DNA of 64,000 nucleotides, from contig JAHLMN010000005.1 of assembly GCA_018920345.1 (NCBI GenBank), forward strand, positions 12,255 through 76,254. Reading direction: 5' to 3'. How positions within the stretch are numbered: position 1 is the first letter of the stretch; each line of letters opens with the position of its first letter. A program made the position numbers and the translations under genes. Shown here in pieces: positions 13,904-52,000 of the stretch. The notes below the pieces were generated by a model. It saw only the letters and a program-made list of their open reading frames with translations. It did no database searches and was not told where the DNA came from. The DNA is from Candidatus Aenigmatarchaeota archaeon (GTDB taxonomy: Archaea > Aenigmatarchaeota > Aenigmatarchaeia > CG10238-14).

Positions 13904-14098
13904 TTAAGGTTTAAACTTTGCAACTTTTTGTATTAGATCAACATGACTGATGAATAAAGACCTACAACAATATCTTTCTAAGCCTAGATCATTTAATACT
14001 TTTTCGCTATTCTCACCATTTTTAATTCTTTTTTGATATTCTTCCCACAAGTGACCAACTACTTTCCCACAAGAAAAACATCTTACAGGTATAATCAT
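13904..14098 (-). CDS. rpoN: DNA-directed RNA polymerase subunit N (Rpb10 homologue)
   Basis: MIIPVRCFSCGKVVGHLWEEY...LGLERYCCRSLFISHVDL shows the Rpb10 CxxC...CC zinc-bundle signature. Confidence 0.85.
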   Translation of the reverse strand: MIIPVRCFSCGKVVGHLWEEYQKRIKNGENSEKVLNDLGLERYCCRSLFISHVDLIQKVAKFKP

Positions 14099-14215
14099 TC
14101 AATCTCCTACCAATATTTAAATTTTGCAAATATAATTCTTATCCTCAAAATTTTTAAAGATATCTTTCTTAGAAACTCCTATCATTTTATATCTATTAAA
14201 AACAATTATAATCTA

Positions 14216-14497
14216 ATGAGTATAGATATTGATTTTGAAAAAAAACCCATAAAATCTAAAAAGCTCAAAATAATCTCTAATATAGGCTCACTTTATGCTA
14301 CTTTTGATGGATCTAGAGTATGGGAAATTGATCAAGCAGTAAATTATGTTCTAAGTTTATGTGATGGAAATAGAAGAATAGAAGACATAGCACAAGAAAT
14401 AGCTAAAACAATAGAAAGTGATATAGAAGTAGTAAGACAAACTTTAGCTAGTATGATGTTAGAGCTTGAGAAAAATGGTTTTATAGAATATTTATGA
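14216..14497 (+). CDS. PqqD-family / RiPP-recognition-element-like small protein
   Basis: MSIDIDFEKK...GSLYATFDGSRVWEIDQAVNYVLSLCDGNRRIEDIAQEIAKTIESDIEVVRQTLASMMLELEKNGFIEYL. The tracked ORF start at 14033 is an antisense extension over rpoN. The internal ATG at 14216 gives a 93-aa PqqD-sized protein. Confidence 0.55.
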   Translation: MSIDIDFEKKPIKSKKLKIISNIGSLYATFDGSRVWEIDQAVNYVLSLCDGNRRIEDIAQEIAKTIESDIEVVRQTLASMMLELEKNGFIEYL

Positions 14498-14740
14498 AAC
14501 CTTCTTTAACTTTTCTAATACTTCTTCTTCTTTTATTAATTTAACATATCTTTCTTTCAAATAACATAATTTTGCCACACCAACTTTTCTTTGATAAATT
14601 ATACCAGCTCCTATTAACTCGTGAACATATTTTGTAGCTGTTAATCTATTCATATTAGTTAGTTGGGCTATTTTTTGTAGTGTTAATCCTTCTGGGTGTT
14701 TTTTCAAAAGCTCTATTATTGATTGTTTAGGATCGCTCAT
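14492..14740 (-). CDS. Winged-helix DNA-binding protein (paralogue of the N-terminus of gene 18212-19069)
   Basis: IIELLKKHPEGLTLQKIAQLTNMNRLTATKYVHELIGAGIIYQRKVGVAKLCYL aligns with ILQLLSKHPEGLTITSIAEKLGIHRHTATKYVKDLILSGEINERNVGMAKLCFL. Confidence 0.7.
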   Translation of the reverse strand: MSDPKQSIIELLKKHPEGLTLQKIAQLTNMNRLTATKYVHELIGAGIIYQRKVGVAKLCYLKERYVKLIKEEEVLEKLKKVS

Positions 14741-14829
14741 AGTAATCGATAATAATTAATGTTAAACAATAATATTTAAAATTAATTATAAACCGAAATG
14801 TTTATAAGCTGGGTTAACAATATCTATTT

Positions 14830-15723
14830 ATGGACAAAATGAAAATAGAAAATATTTTAATAATTTCATTTATATTGGCTCTATCTATTTTATCACTTGT
14901 AAATTTTCCTTCTATTCAGGCAGCTACAAACGATACTGTTGTAATTCATGTTAATGTATCTTTATTATCAGAAATAACTGTTACTCCAGAAATGTTAGAA
15001 TGGTTGAATATAGTTCCAGGAACACCAGCAGCAGAATATAGTGTAGATATAAAAAACACAGGATCTACCAATTTCACAAAATTATGGGCAACTGTTAACT
15101 CTTTTGCTACTGAAACTACAAATCCTCTAGGAAAAGGTAATCCTTTATTATATGCAGCAGGATCTTTCTTACTTTTGAAAAATGAAACAGGTGAAGATGC
15201 ATTTAGATTCGTCAACAGAATGGAATGGAATGAAACAGAAATGCCTACATATATGGTTCCTAACCCATCTGACGCTGTGTCATGGGGTTATTTCAGGAAT
15301 TTCACTGATATCTATTTGTGGAATTTTAATGACAGTGCGACTGCAGGCGAATGCCTGAATGGGACAGAAATGCAATTTAGAATAAAGACAACACCTGAAT
15401 CTATAGTATTGCCAAACAGAGATATGACAGTCGGCACAGTAGCAGCTACATTTGAAGCAAATACAACAGAATGGAGTGCATGGAGTTTTTCATCAGGACC
15501 ATTAGCTGGATATTGTGTTTACATATACAAAGATTGTCAAAAGATAATGGTTGCACAATGGGACTATAATCAAACTTTACCAGCATGTAGCTCAAGAAAA
15601 TATATAACTCAAGAATTCTTTATGCCAAACATGATTCATACTGTTAATTTAACAGTCTATATACCAAGAGGAGTTCCATACGGTAATACTACATCGAATA
15701 TTTTAACAATAGTAGCTGAATAG
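14830..15723 (+). CDS. Secreted protein with multiple N-glycosylation sequons
   Basis: Signal peptide (ILIISFILALSILSLVNFPSIQAA) and many NxS/T sites. Confidence 0.6.
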   Translation: MDKMKIENILIISFILALSILSLVNFPSIQAATNDTVVIHVNVSLLSEITVTPEMLEWLNIVPGTPAAEYSVDIKNTGSTNFTKLWATVNSFATETTNPLGKGNPLLYAAGSFLLLKNETGEDAFRFVNRMEWNETEMPTYMVPNPSDAVSWGYFRNFTDIYLWNFNDSATAGECLNGTEMQFRIKTTPESIVLPNRDMTVGTVAATFEANTTEWSAWSFSSGPLAGYCVYIYKDCQKIMVAQWDYNQTLPACSSRKYITQEFFMPNMIHTVNLTVYIPRGVPYGNTTSNILTIVAE

Positions 15724-15733
15724 GCTGTTTTTT

Positions 15734-15925
15734 ATGGGTCTATTTGGTGGATATTCTTATAAAAATAAAAAAGGTGAGAAATATTATTTACATTATTCTG
15801 AAAAAAAGAAAGTTTATTATTTTTCTAAAGAACCTACCGATTCAATAGATTTACCTATAGGCTACGAAGTGGTAGAAAGTCCTAGGACCGGGCTACCTGT
15901 TTTAAGAAAAATAGGGAAAAAATAA
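15734..15925 (+). CDS. Small hypothetical protein (63 aa)
   Basis: ORF 11 nt downstream of the preceding gene. Basic and Tyr-rich. No family recognised. Confidence 0.4.
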   Translation: MGLFGGYSYKNKKGEKYYLHYSEKKKVYYFSKEPTDSIDLPIGYEVVESPRTGLPVLRKIGKK

Positions 15926-15990
15926 TTGTTTCACTATAGTTTCATCTAGTAAAAAAATGTTATAGGTAACTAAATTTTAAAAATTTCAAA

Positions 15991-16032
15991 TGTTATAGTT
16001 AACTATAACAAATTTTGCCAAAATTGGCAAAA
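15991..16032. promoter_or_regulatory. Two adjacent palindromes in a promoter region: perfect 20-bp TGTTATAGTTAACTATAACA, then TTTTGCCAA-aa-TTGGCAAAA (9-bp arms)
   Basis: Read directly from the sequence. A third partial copy (TGTTATAGgTAACT) lies at 15958-15971. They sit immediately upstream of the ATG at 16066. Confidence 0.45.
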
Positions 16033-16065
16033 CATACAGTTCAGACCGTCTGGCCGGGGGGTGTC

Positions 16066-16776
16066 ATGGAGCAGCAATTATGGGCATTTGACAAGTTCTG
16101 GATAATATGGTCTTCTTGTTTAGACAAGCCTAGAACGCTTAATGAAATACAAGACTTTTGGGAGTATGATGGTAATGCTTTATACCAAAAAGGTTTGAAT
16201 AAACCAATTTGGAAAGAAATGCTTGAGCAAGGTTTTATAGAAAGCAAAGGCAAAGTTAAAGTAAGAGGAGTTTCTGGCGATTTAATATATGGTAAGCTTG
16301 AATGGATACCCAATTATTTAGAAGAATTATCAAAAGAGTTGAGAGTAAAATATGAAAACGAGCAACTTTTCCATCTTTTAAAATGTATAGAGAACAAGAA
16401 AAAACTTTTGTATTATATTGATACAAACAGAACAGTATTCTTTTTGTTACCTAGACTTAAAATATTGTTTGGTAAAAAAGATGTGCTGAAAGCAAACTAT
16501 GATCTATGTATAACAGCACCTTTAACAATAATATTTAACTACTATATAATAACTACACTAAAGAAAAAATTGAAGCTAGAGCTAGATAGTATATTTCTGC
16601 TTTCCCATTCACTAATATTTACACCTTTTAGTAGAATAAATTTTCTAGGATATTACAAGGCTGTGATGAAAGAATTATCATTAAAAGAGTTGCCTTTGGG
16701 AATTTTTAATGAAGCAGCGACTTTTAAATTATGGAAAGATTATGCAAAGGATATTTTGAAAGAGATAAATCTCTAA
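16066..16776 (+). CDS. Hypothetical protein (ATG start; tracked TTG start 16015 lies inside the palindrome)
   Basis: 236-aa ORF MEQQLWAFDKFW... No family recognised. Confidence 0.5.
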   Translation: MEQQLWAFDKFWIIWSSCLDKPRTLNEIQDFWEYDGNALYQKGLNKPIWKEMLEQGFIESKGKVKVRGVSGDLIYGKLEWIPNYLEELSKELRVKYENEQLFHLLKCIENKKKLLYYIDTNRTVFFLLPRLKILFGKKDVLKANYDLCITAPLTIIFNYYIITTLKKKLKLELDSIFLLSHSLIFTPFSRINFLGYYKAVMKELSLKELPLGIFNEAATFKLWKDYAKDILKEINL

Positions 16777-16802
16777 ATTAAAAAAATATTATTGTTGAGA
16801 AA

Positions 16803-17397
16803 ATGGAAATGATTTATGAAAAAAACAGAATATTTTTGAAAAATAAAAAAATCAATAATCTAGACAAATTTGTAATAAAATTTGTAAAAATCTTGGAAAA
16901 ATATACAAGATATGTTATAGTTAGCGGATATGTATCAATACTCTTTGGTCGTTCAAGAGCAACAGAAGATATAGATATTATTGTCGAAAAAAAAAGATCT
17001 TTCTGAATTTTTTTCTCATTTAGAAAAAAAGAATTATTGGTTGATAAATGCAAGTTTTAATGAAGCTAATGAAAACATAAAATATAATGCTATTAGAATT
17101 GCAAAAAAAGGTAAATTTATTCCAAATATAGAATTAAAGATAGCTAAGACAGATATAGAAAAAATAGCACTTTCGGAAAGAATAAGAGTTTTTCTTAATT
17201 CAAGTTCAATTTACATATCCCCCATAGAATTGAAAATAGCTTATAAGTTGTTTTTATCTTCTGAAAAAGATATAGAAGATGCAAGACATTTATTTAATAT
17301 TTTTTCAGATAAGATAAAAATAGAAGAGTTGAAAAAGATGGTTGAGGAATTAAAAGTGGAAAAAAAATTAAAATATTTGGGGATAAAATATGATTGA
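16803..17397 (+). pseudogene. Nucleotidyltransferase-fold protein interrupted by a frameshift in an A9 homopolymer (16987-16995)
   Basis: ORF 16803-17006 carries a minimal NTase motif (SGYVSILFGRSRATEDIDIIV). It stops just after the A9 run. ORF 16981-17397 continues in another frame from the same run (..IIVEKK | DLSEFFSHLEKK..). Confidence 0.5.
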
Positions 17398-17545
17398 TAT
17401 CAAAGAGTTGAAAGAGCAGAAAATAAAGAATTTTGAAGAAAGATTAAAGTTTATAGATCTTTGGTGTGATTATATAAAAAAAACCCCAAATAAAGTTTGG
17501 AGTTCTCAACAAGCAGAAATAATAAACAGCCAAATAACAAAAGAT
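17390..17545 (+). CDS. Small hypothetical protein (51 aa)
   Basis: ATG overlaps the upstream stop (ATGATTGA). MIDIKELKEQKIKNFEERLKFIDLWCDYIKKTPNKVWSSQQAEIINSQITKDMI. Weak support only. Confidence 0.3.
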
Positions 17546-17550
17546 ATGAT

Positions 17551-17940
17551 TTAAGCAAGTTTGTAATATTTCTTTCTGTTAATAACTTCTGCTCTAGCTT
17601 CTTTATTTCTTTCCATTTCTTTTAGATATTCATTACATCTAGTTCTTGATAATCCCACAATCTCAGCCAATTCTTCTGAAGTCATTTTTCCTTTTTTTCT
17701 TAATATCATTTTTATTGCTTCCTTTATCTTGTCTTTCTTTGTTATTGTTGTTGTTTCACTATCTAATGGTGTTTTTTCCAATAGTTGTTTTATTTCTTCT
17801 AGTTGTAAAGAGATTCTGTCGATTTTTTGGTTTAATTCTCTAACATCTTCCATTAACTTAAATATATGAGCATATTGCAAGTTTAGTTGTTTATGGATTT
17901 CATCATTAGAATCCTTTTCTTGTGTTAGCAATTTTATCAT
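17551..17940 (-). CDS. Coiled-coil protein with C-terminal winged-helix HTH (putative transcription regulator)
   Basis: N-terminal heptad-rich segment (LNQKIDRISLQLEEIKQLLEK), then KMTSEELAEIVGLSRTRCNEYLKEMERNKEARAEVINRKKYYKL. Confidence 0.6.
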   Translation of the reverse strand: MIKLLTQEKDSNDEIHKQLNLQYAHIFKLMEDVRELNQKIDRISLQLEEIKQLLEKTPLDSETTTITKKDKIKEAIKMILRKKGKMTSEELAEIVGLSRTRCNEYLKEMERNKEARAEVINRKKYYKLA

Positions 17941-17949
17941 ATTCTATTT

Positions 17950-18170
17950 ATTTGTTTTGTCGAAATAAAATGCTTTTCTATTCGACACTTTTCTATTCGA
18001 CTTTTTGAAAAAACTTAGAATCGACAAAATAGACAATGCATTTTAAAAAGGCTTTTTTCTCCTTGTTTTTTTGCCTATCAAACATAGTTTTTGTTTCGAT
18101 TAAAAAGAAAATGTGTCGATTCGACTTTTCTTTTCTATATATTAGAAGGAGTTATATCAATCGACAATAT
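17950..18170. promoter_or_regulatory. Divergent intergenic region with at least 8 TCGAC-containing motifs, including a 15-bp tandem direct repeat CTTTTCTATTCGAC(A/T)
   Basis: gtcgaa (17960), cttttctattcgaca (17973-17987), cttttctattcgact (17988-18002), aatcgacaaaatagacaat (18019-18037), tttcgatt (18094), tgtcgattcgac (18113-18124), aatcgacaatattgtt (18159-18174). The pentamer is GC-rich in an AT-rich genome, so the enrichment is strong. Confidence 0.5.
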
Positions 18171-18211
18171 TGTTATACAATATTGGCCAATCTAAGAAGG
18201 AGGATATCCTC

Positions 18212-19069
18212 GTGAAAGAAGAAATATTGCAACTTTTGTCTAAACATCCAGAAGGTTTGACAATAACTTCTATAGCCGAAAAACTAGGGATACATAGACA
18301 TACTGCCACAAAATATGTTAAAGATCTTATCTTATCTGGGGAGATAAATGAGAGAAATGTCGGTATGGCAAAACTTTGTTTTTTGAATAAATACAAGTCT
18401 AGGCATATAATAGGTGAAAAAGCTGAAACAGGGCAGGCACAAATATTTGCTTTAGCAATTCTCTTATTCTTTATACCTGTTTTAATAATAGCTCAGAATT
18501 TTGGCACAAATATTACAGGTAGTTTTAGTGAAGTAATCGACACAACATTTATCACTTCTTCTAGCGATATCATAACAACAACGACAATTTCTGAATTTGT
18601 CGAAAATTCGACAGAATTAGTAGTCCAACAAGAGCCTTTATTAGTTGAAAATTACTCTGAGAATTCGACAGATTTTAATGAAGATATAGCTACTTCAGAG
18701 CATCAAAATATATCATCTTTTATCAATGAAACTAATGAAACAACCTCTAATAATTCATTAACAGAAATACAAGATGAAATTTTACAGCCAACTGAAACAA
18801 TAGAAAAAATAGAACTCGATTTAAACATTCCTAAAAAGATAAATAGAGGTGAAGAATTTCAAGCAACAGCTTCAGTATTAAACAAGTTTTCTTCGCAAAA
18901 AAATGTAAAAATAAAATGGATGCTTCCTCCTGGTTTTTCCATAATAAGAGGTAGTGAAGAAACTTTTTGTGAGCTAGAATCAGAGCAAGGATGCATTTCT
19001 GAAATAATGATAAAAGCTGAAACAGAGTTGGGGTTGCACGAGATAAAGGTGAAAGCAACTTATGAGTAA
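18212..19069 (+). CDS. Membrane-anchored winged-helix regulator (cytoplasmic wHTH, single TM, extracellular glycosylated domain); probable GTG start
   Basis: GTG at 18212 is preceded by AGGAGG 7 nt upstream and gives VKEEILQLLSKHPEGL..., parallel to the paralogue start. The tracked TTG/ATG start is 18170. TM is FALAILLFFIPVLIIA, followed by NxT-rich and CARDB-like sequence. The stop overlaps the giant gene ATG by 8 nt. Confidence 0.7.
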   Translation: MKEEILQLLSKHPEGLTITSIAEKLGIHRHTATKYVKDLILSGEINERNVGMAKLCFLNKYKSRHIIGEKAETGQAQIFALAILLFFIPVLIIAQNFGTNITGSFSEVIDTTFITSSSDIITTTTISEFVENSTELVVQQEPLLVENYSENSTDFNEDIATSEHQNISSFINETNETTSNNSLTEIQDEILQPTETIEKIELDLNIPKKINRGEEFQATASVLNKFSSQKNVKIKWMLPPGFSIIRGSEETFCELESEQGCISEIMIKAETELGLHEIKVKATYE

Positions 19070-22000
19070 TCAAAAATTCAACAAAAGCCAAGTTTCTCTT
19101 GCCTTAGCTATGCCTATATTCTTCTTACCTATTCTAGTAATTCTTCCTCTATATCTTGCTTTATCTTTACTTGTGCTATATATAGCCTTCATAAACTTAA
19201 GTAAAAAATCTGAAACAGGTCAAAGCCAGTTGTTAGCTTCTTTGATTGTCTTGTTAATAACCTCTACTTTAGTAATAGCAACCAATTCCACAATTACAAA
19301 TAATACTATCACAGGAATGTTCACAGAAGTCATGCCAGAAGAGATTGAAAAAACAGCTCAAATAGAAGTGTGGGCAAATACATTTATTGAAACTTCTGAA
19401 GAAAACAATCTTATAAAAGCTAGATTATTAATGGATAATGGTTCTTTTGTTAGCGGACAAGAAATTTTATCATATTTTAATGATCAAGTTCAAAATATTC
19501 AAATCACAGATAATGATGGTTATGCATACTTTGATAAAAACATAACTAAATTAGAATATAAAGGAAACCAAAGTTTATATTTGAACCCCAGTTTTATTGA
19601 AATAAATTATACTCAGACTTTAACTAGACAAGATTTCTTAACAGTTTTTACTGACAAACAGTTTTATGAAAGTAATGAGACAGTAAATGTTTTCGGTTAT
19701 GTTTCAATAAATGGCTCAGTAGAAGTTGAGATAATAGTTGAAAAAGACAGTCAAGTATACAAAACACAAACAATATCTGCTGAAAACGGTTCATATAATT
19801 ATAATTTTATTGTTGATTTTACCGAGCAAGGTGTTTATACAATAAAAGTAAGATCAATAGGTTTGATAAATACAACAGCATTTGAATATAGGTTGCCAAA
19901 GAAACTAAGAATAGAGGCTACTGCTTTTGCAGAAAATATAGGAAAGACAAAATTAAAGTCAATAATTGTTAACGGAAGCGTTTTTTCAGGAGATACAAAA
20001 ATACCAGCCTTAATAAAAGTAAAAATTTACAATGTTAATGGAGAATTGGTATTGCAGAGTCAAAAGCAAATTGTAAATAATTTCTTTTTCAATTTTACTC
20101 ACTTGCCGAAAACATATGGCAAATATTATGCTGAGATAAATGCTGAAACTGAGTTAGGCAATGTAAGCGAAACAATTTATTTTGATGTTTTAAAGCATTT
20201 AGTACTAAAGCCTTTAATAAAACAAGAAAAATTCAATTATGAGCTAGGAGAAAAAATAAGATTCCAAGTAGATGCTGTTGATGAAGATGGAAATATCTAT
20301 TCAGATGTAAATGTTTCTGCTTTTGTCGTTGATCCTGATGGCAATGTAACAGAAGCAAATGTTATAGCAGATGAAACTTTACCAGGAAGATTTTATGTTG
20401 AGTTAGATACTGAAAGAGAGTTTAGGCCAGGCGTGCACAAGCTAAAAGTTCGACTAAACTATATTAGTCCAAACCCAGGTGAGGTTGTTGTTGAGGAGGA
20501 AGTGGAATTTGCTGTTGGTTTGATTAATGTTAATACAGATAAAAGTATTTATTTACCAGGAGATAAAGCAAAGATAACAATTGGAGTTTTAAATAATGAA
20601 GGAAAAAGGGCTTATGATGCAACTGTTATTATGAATATAATAACCCCATCAGGGGAAATTTTTACATACAATAGTTATAATGGAGATTTTTCAACAGACG
20701 AAATTGACGGTAGTTTAGCTTTGCTTTATGATGTAAATGAAACTGGCAATTATTCGATAGATGTTTTGGCATATGGTTCAAATTTTTCAGTTAATTACCA
20801 GACATTTTTTGAAACAAGAAATTATGTAGATTTTGATATACAGAGAAAGGTAAAAACACTTATAGACATAGGACATCCAAATACAGCTGAAATAAAAATC
20901 AAATCCAATGTTAATGCAAACAATGTTACATTGATAGAAAAATTACCTAATAGTTTTTTAGAAATAACAGCATATGGAGCTAGAATAGAAAGAAAGGAAA
21001 ACGAAACTTGGATTATATGGAGTTTTAATAAATTAAATGAAAATGATGAAAAAACATTAAAATATAGCTTCACAACCCCTGATGTTAACCCAGCAATTTA
21101 TTTAGCAGGCCCATTAACAGTTTATTATAATGATTCATTTGTTTTTGAAGAATCAAAACCTTGGACATTTATTGTAGTTGATGTTGTCTATTATTTCTTT
21201 AAATTCATGCCTTATTACTATAGAACTAACAATGTAACTGATTCTGTTCAGCATATAGTTTTTAACAGCTTTGATGAATATAGAGATCCCGTTATTATGT
21301 GTAGAAACCACGAAAATTATTCTTTGAATGTTCTATTAACAGATGAAGCAGATGATGATAATGGAATAATTCAACAATGGGAACTACAAATTTATGATGG
21401 TTCATGGAAAGCAATAACAACAAATGGTGTAGCAGGATTTTATATAATGTCGGGAGAAACTAATCCTGTTTCAGGTAGTGGTGTCGGTACAACAGATACA
21501 TGTACATCAAACTTTGGTGTAGCAGGTGGTGATAAATGTGAATGGGGTGAACATTTCAGATGGAACATAACAATTAATAAAACAGCACCTTTAGGTTTAA
21601 CGAAAATAAGAGTTTTGCCAAAAACAAGAACGCAAGGTCCGATGTTCAATACAAATGAATTTTATGCTTATATAATAGATTGTCAAGATATTAATCTTGT
21701 AAGACCAATAAAAATATTTGGTCCATCAGGTGAGCCAATAGACAAAATATCGAGAGGCCATATAGCAAAAATTGTAATTCCATTAGCAAATTATAACTCA
21801 TCTTTAAAAAAGGCTAACATAAGTATAGATATAAAAGATTCTACTGGAAACTCTGTTGATTGGTTTATTGAGGAAGGAAAAGTACAAACAGTATCTATAC
21901 CAGGAACTTTAACAAGACCAAATTGGAGTGAGAAAATAGTTGTATACACAGTATATGTACCTGATGAAGTACAAGCAACAACATACAGTATTTATGTAAA

Positions 22001-49000: not shown

Positions 49001-52000
49001 AGATGGAACTACAAACAACGCTACTATGATATTGCAAGCATCAGGTAATGATGATGTCTACAACATAACATTCTCCTGTCTTGATGGTGTAGCTTGTCAA
49101 GACTTTAATGTTTCATTCTATCCAACATTCATAAACAGAATTAATCTAACTGATACAGATTTAGTAAACATTTCAGTTTCAGTGCCAAAACAATATATGA
49201 CAGGAAGATATAATGGAACAATACTAGTAAATGCAACAAACTTTTCCATGGTCGTGCCTCTATATGTAATAGTCCCAATGAACATTTCTTGGTCTCAAAC
49301 ACCTTTAGAGATTAGCAAGACAGTTTTAGGCGATACAAAAGGTGTATTTGGTGAAATAGAATTGCAAAACACAGGCAATGCACCTGTAATTCTAGAAATT
49401 CTCAAATCAGGAAATATTAGCAACTATATATCTTTATCTGAGAGCAGCATAACAATACCAATAGGTCAAACATATTTAATAAAAATAAACTATACAGTTC
49501 CTGTCATAAATCAAGAAAGCAACTTTACAGGTGAAATAATTATAAGAAATACAACAGCTGACCAACAAAAACAAACATCTGTTTCTCTATATGTATTGCC
49601 ATACTATGTAAACATAACAAAACCAACCGAAGTTGAACCTATTGTAAACATAGCATTTGGAGATGTAGTAACATCTTATGTCAATGTAACATATAGTCAA
49701 ACAATAACAGAAAATGTAACATTCTATTTAAGAATTGGAAACGAATCATTCTCACAAGCAATAGTGGTTGATTCATCTCAATTCTTACCTGACATGCAAT
49801 TATGGCAAATAAACTTCACTGCACCTTTATTACCTGAAAACAGAGCTTATGATTTAAATGTAACAGCTTACTATTCAACAAAGAATGTTACAAGAAGTGA
49901 TATAGAATATAAAGCAATAAACTATAGAGATTCTATACCACCAAATATAACATTAATAACGCCACTCAAAGTTCCAGCTGGTTATATAGCTATAATAGAT
50001 GCACTAATATATGAAGAAGGCAATCTAAAGAATGTTTCTGGTATAATAACATATCCAGATAATAGAACAGAGTATGTTAATTTTGCAAGATTAAAGAGAA
50101 CAAACAACACATATTATTATCAACACAATATAACTAATACAACTTTGCTTGGCGTTTACACAATAAATGCAACAACTTGTGACTTTTCAGGTAATTGTGC
50201 TAATGCCTCAGCAGAATTTAGCATATATCCAGCTGCATTATTCCATGGTTATTCAAAAGATTATGAAGCAGCTTCTGAGCCAGTACAATTTGTTAACTTT
50301 AGCTTATATCAACCTGGAGTAGAATTGCTTTTATTCAACATTACACCTAACATGCAAACAGGTTATTATTCTGCTTTAATAGATGCAAGATCATATGACT
50401 TGCAAGCTTCCATATTCAATTCTACTGTTTTAGCCAGAGATGTTGAAATTATACAAGATGTCTTCAATCCAATAATATTTGGTGATATACCATCAGAAAA
50501 AATAAGTCTTGGTGCATTAACAGGTTTGTATGTAGAATCTATATTGAATACAACTAACACAAGCATTAAGATAGATTATTCACCTTATATTAGCAAGGAA
50601 ATATGTAAGATGAATAATGATTGTAGACCAGCATTATTCTTTGAAGAACATCTTTCATTATTTAGATGCAACGCTTGGACAAGAAAGATTGGTTGCTCAG
50701 GTGGTTGGACAAGGCTAGATACAAAAATAAATACTACATTACACTTTGCTGAAGTTGAAGTTATAGGCAATATTTCAGGTGCTTATGCATTAGCTCCATA
50801 TATTTGTGGCGATGGCATATGTGATCATGGTTATGGAGAGTCACCGTTCACATGTCCAAGAGATTGTGAATTACCAAGGCCAGTACCTGTTCCACCAGCA
50901 GCAGGAGGTGGGGGTGCAGGTGGAGGCGGTGGTGGAGGTGCTGCAGGAGGAAGAGAAGTAAGCATATCTGTACCAGGATTGCCTTATTCAATAAAATCAA
51001 CTTTGTTATTCATCACAATAAAGCCAGGTGAGCAAGAAATACACTCTATTGAAATATCAAATAATGAAGACAAAGAGATAGAAGGCCAACTAAAAGTAGA
51101 AGGATTTGCTTGGGAAATGATAATGCTTGAAGAGCCAGTGTTTAAAGTGGCACCAAAAACTACCAAAGTAATAAAAGTTAAAGTCTTTGCCCTACCAACA
51201 ACTCAGCCTGGTATATATACAGCTGATCTAGTCACAACAATTAATGGCGAACAGCATAGAACACCAATAACAATAAAAGTTGAATATGGTCCAGAGCCAC
51301 TATTAGACGTAAAGATAGAAGCATTATCCAAATCAGTGAGACCAGGAGAAGAGGCAAAATTCCAAGTTACAGTGCTAAATATGGGTCAGACCGCGACAGT
51401 AGAAGATATAGTATTGAATTATACATTAAGGAATTTAAGAACAAACGAGATGATTTCTGTTGGGCAAGAAACAATAGCTGTAGAAGATGTTAATACATTC
51501 ATCAAATCCTTCCATATACCAGAAGATACACCAACTGATAGATATGTCATAGAAGTTACAGCAAGCTATTGGTATGGCAAAAAACAAGCTAGAGCAGCTG
51601 CAGCATTTGATGTTGTTTACTTGCCAGCACCATTGATAATATTGAAAGCTCTTGCTACAAGCTGGATCACATATTTAGTAGTCCTTATAATTGCGCCAGC
51701 TGCTGCAGTTGGCTATAGAGCTTACAGATATTATACAACTATGAAGAAGATTAAAGCCAAATACATATTCCCTGTTGATATAAAGAAGTTACCACAACCA
51801 GGACCAAACACAATATTAGTTGGTAAAGTTGCTGAAACAGATATAAATGCTTATACAGATGTCAACAAGCTTGTCATGCATAGCTTAGCAGCAGGAGGTA
51901 CTGGATCTGGTAAAACAGTATCGGCTATGGTTACAGCAGAAGAATTGCTAAAGAGAGATATACCAATAATTGTCTTTGACCCAACAGCTCAATGGACAGG

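Follow-up and report, generated by a model that had tools for sequence, protein, structure and literature searches.

In the window analyzed here (the whole stretch of 64,000 nucleotides, from contig JAHLMN010000005.1 of a Candidatus Aenigmatarchaeota archaeon), the intergenic region at 17941-18211 separates the minus-strand gene of a 129-amino acid (aa) winged helix-turn-helix (wHTH) protein from the plus-strand gene of a 285-aa protein, which begins an operon with a giant gene. This region carries repeated TCGACA sites, which we regard with high confidence as a conserved protein-binding regulatory array. From the sequence comparisons described below, it is probably a multi-site operator array with the half-site TCGACA-r-T, which would be bound by the 129-aa protein and would control both the gene of this protein and the giant-gene operon. 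The genes concerned are as follows.

17551-17940, minus strand: regulator gene, 129 aa, proposed TCGACA binder (Pfam HTH_24 and TrmB; AlphaFold2 model)
18212-19069, plus strand: first operon gene, 285 aa, sharing 8 nt with the giant gene, with an HPEGLT-type wHTH, a transmembrane (TM) helix and a Ser/Thr-rich extracytoplasmic part (Pfam HTH_11, E 4e-7; translation)
19062-52841, plus strand: giant gene, 11,259 aa, presumed regulated target (list of open reading frames (ORFs); Pfam search of both ends, the first 3000 and the last 2999 residues)

A direct count of 17958-18166 gave seven cores, GTCGA at 17959 and 18115 and TCGAC at 17982, 17997, 18021, 18121 and 18161. The initial annotation of this DNA had claimed a dense TCGAC cluster here; the cluster is present, the eighth site of the annotation being a TCGAT at 18096. 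A 15-bp tandem repeat at 17973-18002 (copies CTTTTCTATTCGACA and CTTTTCTATTCGACT) and two sites of the common form AATCGACAA(A/T)A (AATCGACAAAA at 18019 and AATCGACAATA at 18159), both pointed out in the annotation, were also confirmed in the sequence. The window has a GC content of 30.7% and is strongly depleted of CG (495 CG per 64 kb). It contains 35 cores (0.55/kb), 28 of them outside the array, so that 0.12 cores are expected per 220 bp, compared with the seven observed (Poisson P = 6.5e-11 per window position); in 20,000 random placements of 35 sites, the maximum within 220 bp was five. An equal density of TCGAC in unrelated intergenic DNA, named beforehand as an argument against an operator, was not seen in the window: ORF-free DNA elsewhere has one core in 2,641 bp, versus seven in 229 bp in the array.

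The intergenic region was aligned with those of orthologues having 89, 74, 67, 63, 63, 62, 60 and 54% protein identity (alignment A2). Invariant islands alternate with diverged DNA, and six of the seven sites hold their position. The sites and the putative promoter elements are listed below, with offsets counted from the regulator start.

17958-17963, minus strand: site F, TCGACA, directly 3' of the regulator TATA-like box and 17 nt before the ATG
17964-17971, minus strand: putative regulator TATA box, ATTTTATT, an invariant A2 block whose role is assigned from its position about 25-32 nt before the ATG
17982-17987, plus strand: site E, TCGACA, in the first copy of the tandem repeat; GTGTCGAA(T/A)AG is invariant in A2
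17997-18002, plus strand: site D, TCGACT, in the second copy of the tandem repeat; the least conserved site
18021-18026, plus strand: site C, TCGACA within AATCGACAAAA; all eight orthologous intergenic regions aligned have TTGTCGA(T/A)T, at -83 to -85
18096-18099, minus strand: degenerate TCGA, AATCGAAAC, loosely conserved; some orthologues read CTCGAA, CTCGAC or AACGAC here and others lack it; unlikely to be a core site
18114-18126, no strand: site B, TGTCGA-T-TCGACT, a palindromic pair that precedes the operon TATA-like box by about 26 nt
18152-18159, plus strand: putative TATA box TTATATCA of the wHTH-TM/giant-gene operon; CTTATATCAATCGACA is conserved in A2
18161-18166, plus strand: site A, TCGACA, starting two bases past the operon TATA-like box; invariant in all aligned orthologues

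In the orientation of the regulator gene, the conserved islands of A2 read as follows.

Island A: TTGGCCAATATTGTATAACAATATTGTCGATTGATATAAG
Island B: GTGTCGAATCGACAG
Island C: TTTGTCGATT
Island D: AAGTCGAA, lost in 3 of 8
Island E: GTGTCGAATAGAAAAG
Island F: ATTTTAT(T/A)TCGACAAtACAAATA, with the ATG 17 nt later

The core columns of A2 have a mean identity of 96%, with 29 of 35 invariant, whereas the mean for the remaining columns is 69%. The offsets lie near -22, -45, (-60), -84, -170 to -186 (the pair) and -214 to -228, and among the orthologues of this clade they drift by a few nt at the promoter-proximal sites and by about 10-20 nt at the distal ones. Site F is found at -21 to -23 and site E at -44 to -46 in all ten loci compared, including locus L085 with 48% protein identity; ATTTTAT(T/A)TCGACA, which joins the TATA-like box to site F, is invariant in nine of nine clade members. 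Site D is kept at -60 or -61 in the window and in L087, L007 and L008, is CTCGA in L083, and is absent from L088, L089 and L084. At site B, GTCGAATCGACA is kept in all clade members and GTCGAACCGAC is found in L089, and site A lies at -214 to -228. In L085, four of the positions are kept and the fifth is shifted (-21, -44, -84, -202 and -241). In L086, where a hicB-like gene is inserted in the intergenic region, sites B and A are found with the operon and E and F with the regulator; the hicB-like antitoxin gene (L086, 1708-2500) lies downstream of a duplicate of the regulator promoter and operators, with sites C to F in the second copy.

These data bear on the possibility that the cluster has no sequence-specific function and is a product of chance, of local duplication, or of a bias left by restriction-modification at TCGA. 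The strong CG depletion means that TCGA counts could reflect methylation or restriction pressure, and the 15-bp repeat is a tandem duplication. However, the statistics and the positional conservation, which extends over genomes of 22-54% GC, exclude chance and strain-specific restriction-modification, and within the duplication only site D is poorly conserved; we consider this explanation hardly tenable.

Each of the two divergent promoters has one TCGACA immediately downstream of its TATA-like box, namely site F for the regulator and site A for the operon, and sites E and F form an inverted pair, TGTCGA-N18-TCGACA, that brackets the regulator TATA-like box. Conserved and recurrent sites at the TATA box, as looked for in an autoregulatory operator at a divergent archaeal promoter, are thus found here, the TATA boxes being assigned by sequence and position. 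Since site F directly follows the TATA-like box and stands 17 nt before the ATG, the regulator transcript is probably leaderless. Another candidate for the operon TATA box, TATATATTA at 18138, was rejected in favor of the conserved TTATATCA at 18152, as it is not conserved, and a sigma-70 promoter scan was set aside as inapplicable to an archaeon. A core at 17819, inside the regulator coding sequence (CDS), was excluded from the array; orthologues encode E instead of D there, and most have no core at this place.

Further sites lie inside the first operon gene. The annotation had noted two copies of TTCGACAGA in the coding region, at 18607 and 18664; both are present, and the sites are conserved in orthologues.

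18537-18542, plus strand: site I1, TCGACA, CDS +326; same CDS position in L083, L088, L089 and L084, and a nearby site in L087 and L086
18598-18613, no strand: site I2, TGTCGA-AAAT-TCGACA, CDS +387 to +402; the TCGACA half (18608) in 6 of 7 orthologues
18665-18670, plus strand: site I3, TCGACA, CDS +454; GAAAATTCGACA unchanged in all seven orthologues

In the DNA alignment, GAAAATTCGACA at I3 is invariant inside a stretch with a mean identity of only 48%, and the spacings between the sites at +326, +397 and +454 (71 and 57 nt) recur in orthologues. The intragenic TCGACA uses the serine codon TCG, which accounts for 2.9% of the Ser codons in the window (33 of 1,128), and at I2 the TCGACA (CDS +397) is kept although the encoded peptide changes (ENSTE, EQSTI and TSTVE). 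Because a rare codon is used and the hexamer is kept across these peptide changes, the constraint on the intragenic sites appears to act on DNA and not on protein. In distant clades (L040, L041, L043, L063, L067, L068 and L080; L053, L054 and L064), a GTCGAAATCCGAC or GTCGAACAGTCGAC pair is found inside the regulator CDS at about +240, which may be a further intragenic operator.

The 129-aa protein is present on contigs of metagenome-assembled genomes (MAGs) of Candidatus Aenigmatarchaeota, a phylum of the DPANN archaea (GCA_038997225.1 and GCA_018920285.1). A scan of metagenome contigs with this single protein gave no confirmed relative, and the intermediate orthologues were obtained singly. 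With recognition-helix peptide patterns, we retrieved 76 loci from GTDB species genomes, nearly all of them Aenigmatarchaeota MAGs, with 22-54% GC and 28-63% identity to the query. In 65 of 77 loci across Aenigmatarchaeota, the divergent neighbor of the regulator gene encodes a small membrane protein and is followed by the gene of a very large protein of the giant family; thus, the regulator and the giant operon, together with the intergenic DNA between them, form a block that is conserved across the phylum. In three loci (L045, L048 and L073), the regulator is accompanied by TCGAC pairs and has no giant-gene neighbor. The 300 bp upstream of the homologues contain 208 cores in 21.8 kb (9.5/kb), compared with 885 in 507 kb elsewhere (1.7/kb), and 47 of 74 loci have a core between -45 and -8 relative to the predicted start. 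In an unbiased k-mer scan, TCGACA/TGTCGA was the top hexamer, occurring in 67 of 72 upstream regions and in 11% of 250-bp background chunks (nominal P 1e-57, not corrected for phylogeny), and the logo of 204 sites reads T-C-G-A-C-A(78%)-r-T(61%). In distant clades, the regulator side has TTTAAAT and then the palindrome TTGTCGA(T/C)CGACAA about 21 nt before the ATG, and the side of the giant operon has TATATATA-ct-TCGACAg on the other strand.

At both promoters, and in most clades, the motif adjoins TATA-like boxes, which could also fit a core-promoter element. TCGACA might then be read by a factor encoded elsewhere, such as a variant of a basal factor (a TFB or TBP paralogue) acting at a lineage-specific promoter-proximal element, or a nucleoid protein. 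We think this quite unlikely: the density check in the related loci gave 13.2 TCGACA per kb for the target intergenic regions, whereas 84 further intergenic regions of these loci had 2.6/kb and ORFs had 0.85/kb, so that other intergenic DNA is not enriched (one site in 2.6 kb in the window), and the presence of both orientations, of palindromes, and of far-upstream and in-gene sites better fits a dedicated regulator.

The 129-aa protein is a good candidate for such a regulator. Its membership in the winged helix-turn-helix fold is supported by a Pfam HTH_24 match (E 7.4e-9, 35.5 bits versus a cut-off of 21.9) and by the AlphaFold2 model (pLDDT 87), which has a long N-terminal helix (residues 2-56), a flexible linker of low confidence (57-67) and a C-terminal wHTH (68-128; helices 68-83, 88-95 and 99-111, strands 115-120 and 123-128) with pLDDT above 90. 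We built a profile (A1) of 33 homologues of the protein, down to 37% identity. In these homologues, LSRTRCNEYLKEME, which aligns to the modeled recognition helix, is invariant or nearly so, and this invariant segment matches the invariant TCGACA half-site. By Foldseek, only generic wHTH relatives were found (ArsR, MarR and Zalpha, with AspA among many), and the PDB sequence search returned weak HTH or coiled-coil matches, the best being 8fje 'E8' (E 2e-4). The TrmB match covers the HTH part only (residues 80-126, E 2.3e-7, Pfam); a TrmB sugar-responsive regulator is ruled out by the size of 129 aa, the C-terminal position of the wHTH and the lack of an effector domain. Matches to Lrp/AsnC are likewise weak and limited to the HTH (PDB 2p5v, E 1.2e-3; NCBIfam Lrp, 22.9 bits versus a cut-off of 233), and that family is ruled out by the absence of a RAM domain and by the reversed domain order in the model. 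In NCBIfam, the protein falls below the cut-off of every curated family. Against the proteins encoded at 14492 and 18212 it has no significant similarity, and it belongs to a different family.

The match of AspA is relevant to another explanation, namely that the array is a site for DNA maintenance, either a replication origin with ORB-like elements or a centromere-like site for protein spreading, as for AspA on plasmid pNOB8. Multiple short repeats in an AT-rich intergenic region would be consistent with such a site. However, the AspA match reflects the generic wHTH fold, alongside ArsR, MarR and Zalpha, and the sites have fixed positions with respect to TATA boxes and start codons. Neither orc1/cdc6 nor a parA-like product was found among the window genes scanned with Pfam or the Pfam-matched genes of the related loci inspected, and the cumulative GC skew has no turning point near 18 kb. 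An ORB or mini-ORB origin was rejected on the absence of an Orc1/Cdc6-like product in the scanned genes and of a skew switch, and we regard DNA maintenance as a whole as very improbable. A structured RNA was rejected as well: no Rfam family was found in the intergenic region, the only signal in 16500-19500 being a sub-threshold one at 19202-19334 (25 bits versus 100), and the short invariant islands do not suggest one.

The initial annotation had proposed the array as an operator for winged-helix paralogues that control the giant-gene locus. The link of a conserved, operator-like array to the giant-gene operon stands; for the binder, the protein encoded at 17551 is a better candidate than those encoded at 14492 and 18212, and we hold it to be the likely one. 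The 82-aa protein (14492-14740) is a paralogue of the N-terminal domain of the 285-aa protein (54% identity), whose wHTH is of the type "HPEGLT...HRHTATKY", and the region between the regulator and the operon has a second element that may be related to this type.

18165-18190, no strand: second element, CAATATTG-N5-CAATATTG then TTGGCCAA, an A2 block over the expected transcription start of the operon

This CAATATTG-N5-CAATATTG is a candidate operator of the HPEGLT-type wHTH proteins. In other clades (intergenic regions of L009-L080), TGTACA-N4-6-TGTACA(AC) is found between the divergent genes, and in the loci inspected closely the TGTACA palindrome lies just downstream of the TATA-TCGACA of the operon. 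Of the 39 loci that have a divergent HPEGLT wHTH gene, 31 carry a palindrome of the TGTACA type, compared with only 2 of the 34 without this gene. In contrast, TCGACA stands upstream of the 129-aa-family gene in every one of the 39 and in 28 of the 34, and the six that lack it are operon-internal genes or have doubtful start calls. Since TCGACA tracks the 129-aa family with or without HPEGLT and the palindrome tracks HPEGLT, we infer from this co-occurrence that TCGACA is read by the 129-aa coiled-coil wHTH protein and the second palindrome by the HPEGLT wHTH proteins.

The reverse assignment, in which TCGACA sites are operators of the HPEGLT-type proteins (the 285-aa protein at 18212, the 82-aa protein at 14492, or both), has several points in its favor. 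An HPEGLT gene is the divergent neighbor in about 39 loci and so co-occurs with TCGACA, the recognition region HRHT(A/V/S)(T/S)KY is also well conserved, and sites A and I1-I3 lie at or inside the 18212 gene itself. Nevertheless, it is unlikely in view of the 28 of 34 loci that have TCGACA and no detectable divergent HPEGLT gene, and of the tracking of HPEGLT by the other palindrome (31 of 39 versus 2 of 34). In L045 and L048, moreover, the palindrome nearest the regulator ATG remains with the regulator. The promoter of the 82-aa paralogue also argues against it, having no conserved TCGA; its conserved words are similar to ATATTGTTA and resemble the CAATATTG element. A related site claimed for this promoter did not hold: AATCGATAATAA is present near 14744-14755, but its core is TCGAT and not TCGAC (ATCGAT at 14746), and it is not conserved in orthologous promoters. 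In the same promoter region (14741-14829), the words ATATTGTTAAC and ATTGTTTAACAATA are conserved in four orthologous loci.

Several points weigh against reading the array as an operator of the 129-aa protein. The assignment of the binder rests on co-occurrence; most loci carry both wHTH genes, so that the discrimination comes from roughly 30 loci, some with uncertain gene starts. The P values ignore the relatedness of the loci, and because the loci were retrieved by recognition-helix patterns, homologues with a different helix are not included as a negative control. The spacing of half-sites (N0, N1, N4 and N18) is unusually wide in range for a simple dimeric wHTH protein. Finally, L037-L039 have the regulator gene and no upstream TCGACA; the gene there follows another one without an intergenic region.

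If the 129-aa protein does bind the array, it would probably dimerize or oligomerize through its long N-terminal helix. Characterized archaeal repressors with sites at the TATA box or immediately 3' of it act by blocking the recruitment of TFB and RNA polymerase. By analogy, occupancy of sites F and A would hinder this recruitment, which would result in autorepression of the regulator and repression of the giant-gene operon, and palindrome B, sites C, D and E, and the intragenic sites I1-I3 might add cooperative binding, looping or a roadblock. We give even chances to the proposal that the array acts to repress both promoters.

MDR1 of Archaeoglobus, LrpA and Phr of Pyrococcus, and TrmB of Thermococcales are examples of archaeal autoregulating repressors with operators that overlap or follow the TATA box. 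The present system is similar in having a small bacterial-type HTH or wHTH protein, sites at or after the BRE/TATA of its own gene and of a neighboring operon, and divergent promoters. In contrast to such repressors, the half-site here is TCGACA, the sites are unusually many, and the target is a giant surface-protein operon; moreover, the 129-aa protein has no ligand-binding domain (neither the RAM domain of Lrp nor the sugar-binding domain of TrmB) and consists of a long N-terminal helix and a wHTH. Lrs14, Sta1 and Sul12a are also small archaeal wHTH proteins with weak profile similarity (E 2e-3 to 7e-3), but the scores of 17-18 bits are far below the family cut-offs of 80-150, and those families do not have the 55-residue N-terminal helix. 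Furthermore, the binding reported for them is often of low specificity, whereas TCGACA is a sharply conserved hexamer. Besides the promoter-proximal sites, the first operon gene contains conserved auxiliary sites (+326 to +454), which recalls the bacterial looping systems lac O1/O2/O3 and gal OE/OI with their auxiliary operators in the first structural gene. The basal machinery here is archaeal, however, and the regulator is unrelated to LacI/GalR; looping is a proposal in our case, and the intragenic sites could equally be roadblocks or marks of internal promoters. A full-text literature search gave no description of the regulator, the TCGACA motif or the synteny. What we describe would thus be a new member of an ordinary mechanism, an autoregulating wHTH protein with operators at divergent promoters; its distinctive features are the phylum-wide conservation beside giant genes, the seven intergenic and three to four intragenic sites, the variable spacing, and the partner motif for a membrane-tethered wHTH protein.

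A more speculative extension, which we consider doubtful, is a phylum-wide switch with two regulators, in which the soluble wHTH protein acts on TCGACA arrays and the membrane-tethered HPEGLT wHTH protein on the second palindrome over the transcription start. The soluble protein, bound at both promoters and at the intragenic sites, would possibly form loops or a higher-order repressive complex. The 285-aa and giant proteins have in common the segment 'K-x-ETGQ(A/S)Q + hydrophobic helix + N-x-T...ITGxFxEV' (BLASTP E 3e-5; window 18410-18540 and 19197-19335). The 'ETGQ(A/S)Q' segment, which would stand directly after the wHTH in the 285-aa protein, looks like a common membrane anchor or a prepilin-like (class III) signal, and it is a possibility that prepilin-type (class III) processing at this segment releases the HPEGLT wHTH domain. 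If so, transcription would be coupled to the export or assembly of the giant protein, or to contact with the host.

DPANN archaea are characterized by giant surface proteins, by which they are believed to attach to their host cells. To our knowledge, almost nothing has been described of their regulation, as most of these organisms are uncultivated. The module presented here supplies a regulator family with an invariant recognition helix, a defined half-site (TCGACA), sites mapped at the two promoters and within the first gene, and a second pair of motif and regulator. Its conservation across the phylum makes the module testable in vitro without culture, and the motif can be used for the prediction of regulons in complete genomes.

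As for the proteins of the operon, the external part of the 285-aa protein is rich in Ser/Thr and in sequons. The terminal segments of the giant protein have Pfam matches to MG2, NEW3 and DUF11 Ig-like repeats and to a C-terminal HerA/DUF87-type ATPase. The latter is a P-loop ATPase match (E 3e-9, about 51800-52100), and in a protein presumed to lie at the surface such a fusion is unusual.

On the other side of the array, a 54-aa ORF (17390-17554), convergent with the regulator gene, overlaps the 3' end of that gene and has a DUF8150 match in related loci. A homopolymer of nine A at 16987-16995 is eight A in six near-identical assemblies (L001-L006); the extra A breaks a gene of 195-197 aa (16804-17397) into two ORFs in the window, which points to an error of assembly or to a tract prone to slippage. 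A TCGACA immediately adjoins this tract. For the core at 16984, L083, L088 and L089 have a core at a similar offset in an unaligned comparison. Among the small genes between the two wHTH loci (14830-17397), at least one (14830-15723) encodes a signal-peptide-like N terminus and many N-x-S/T sequons, and a 154-aa ORF at 14033-14497 has a PqqD-like domain.

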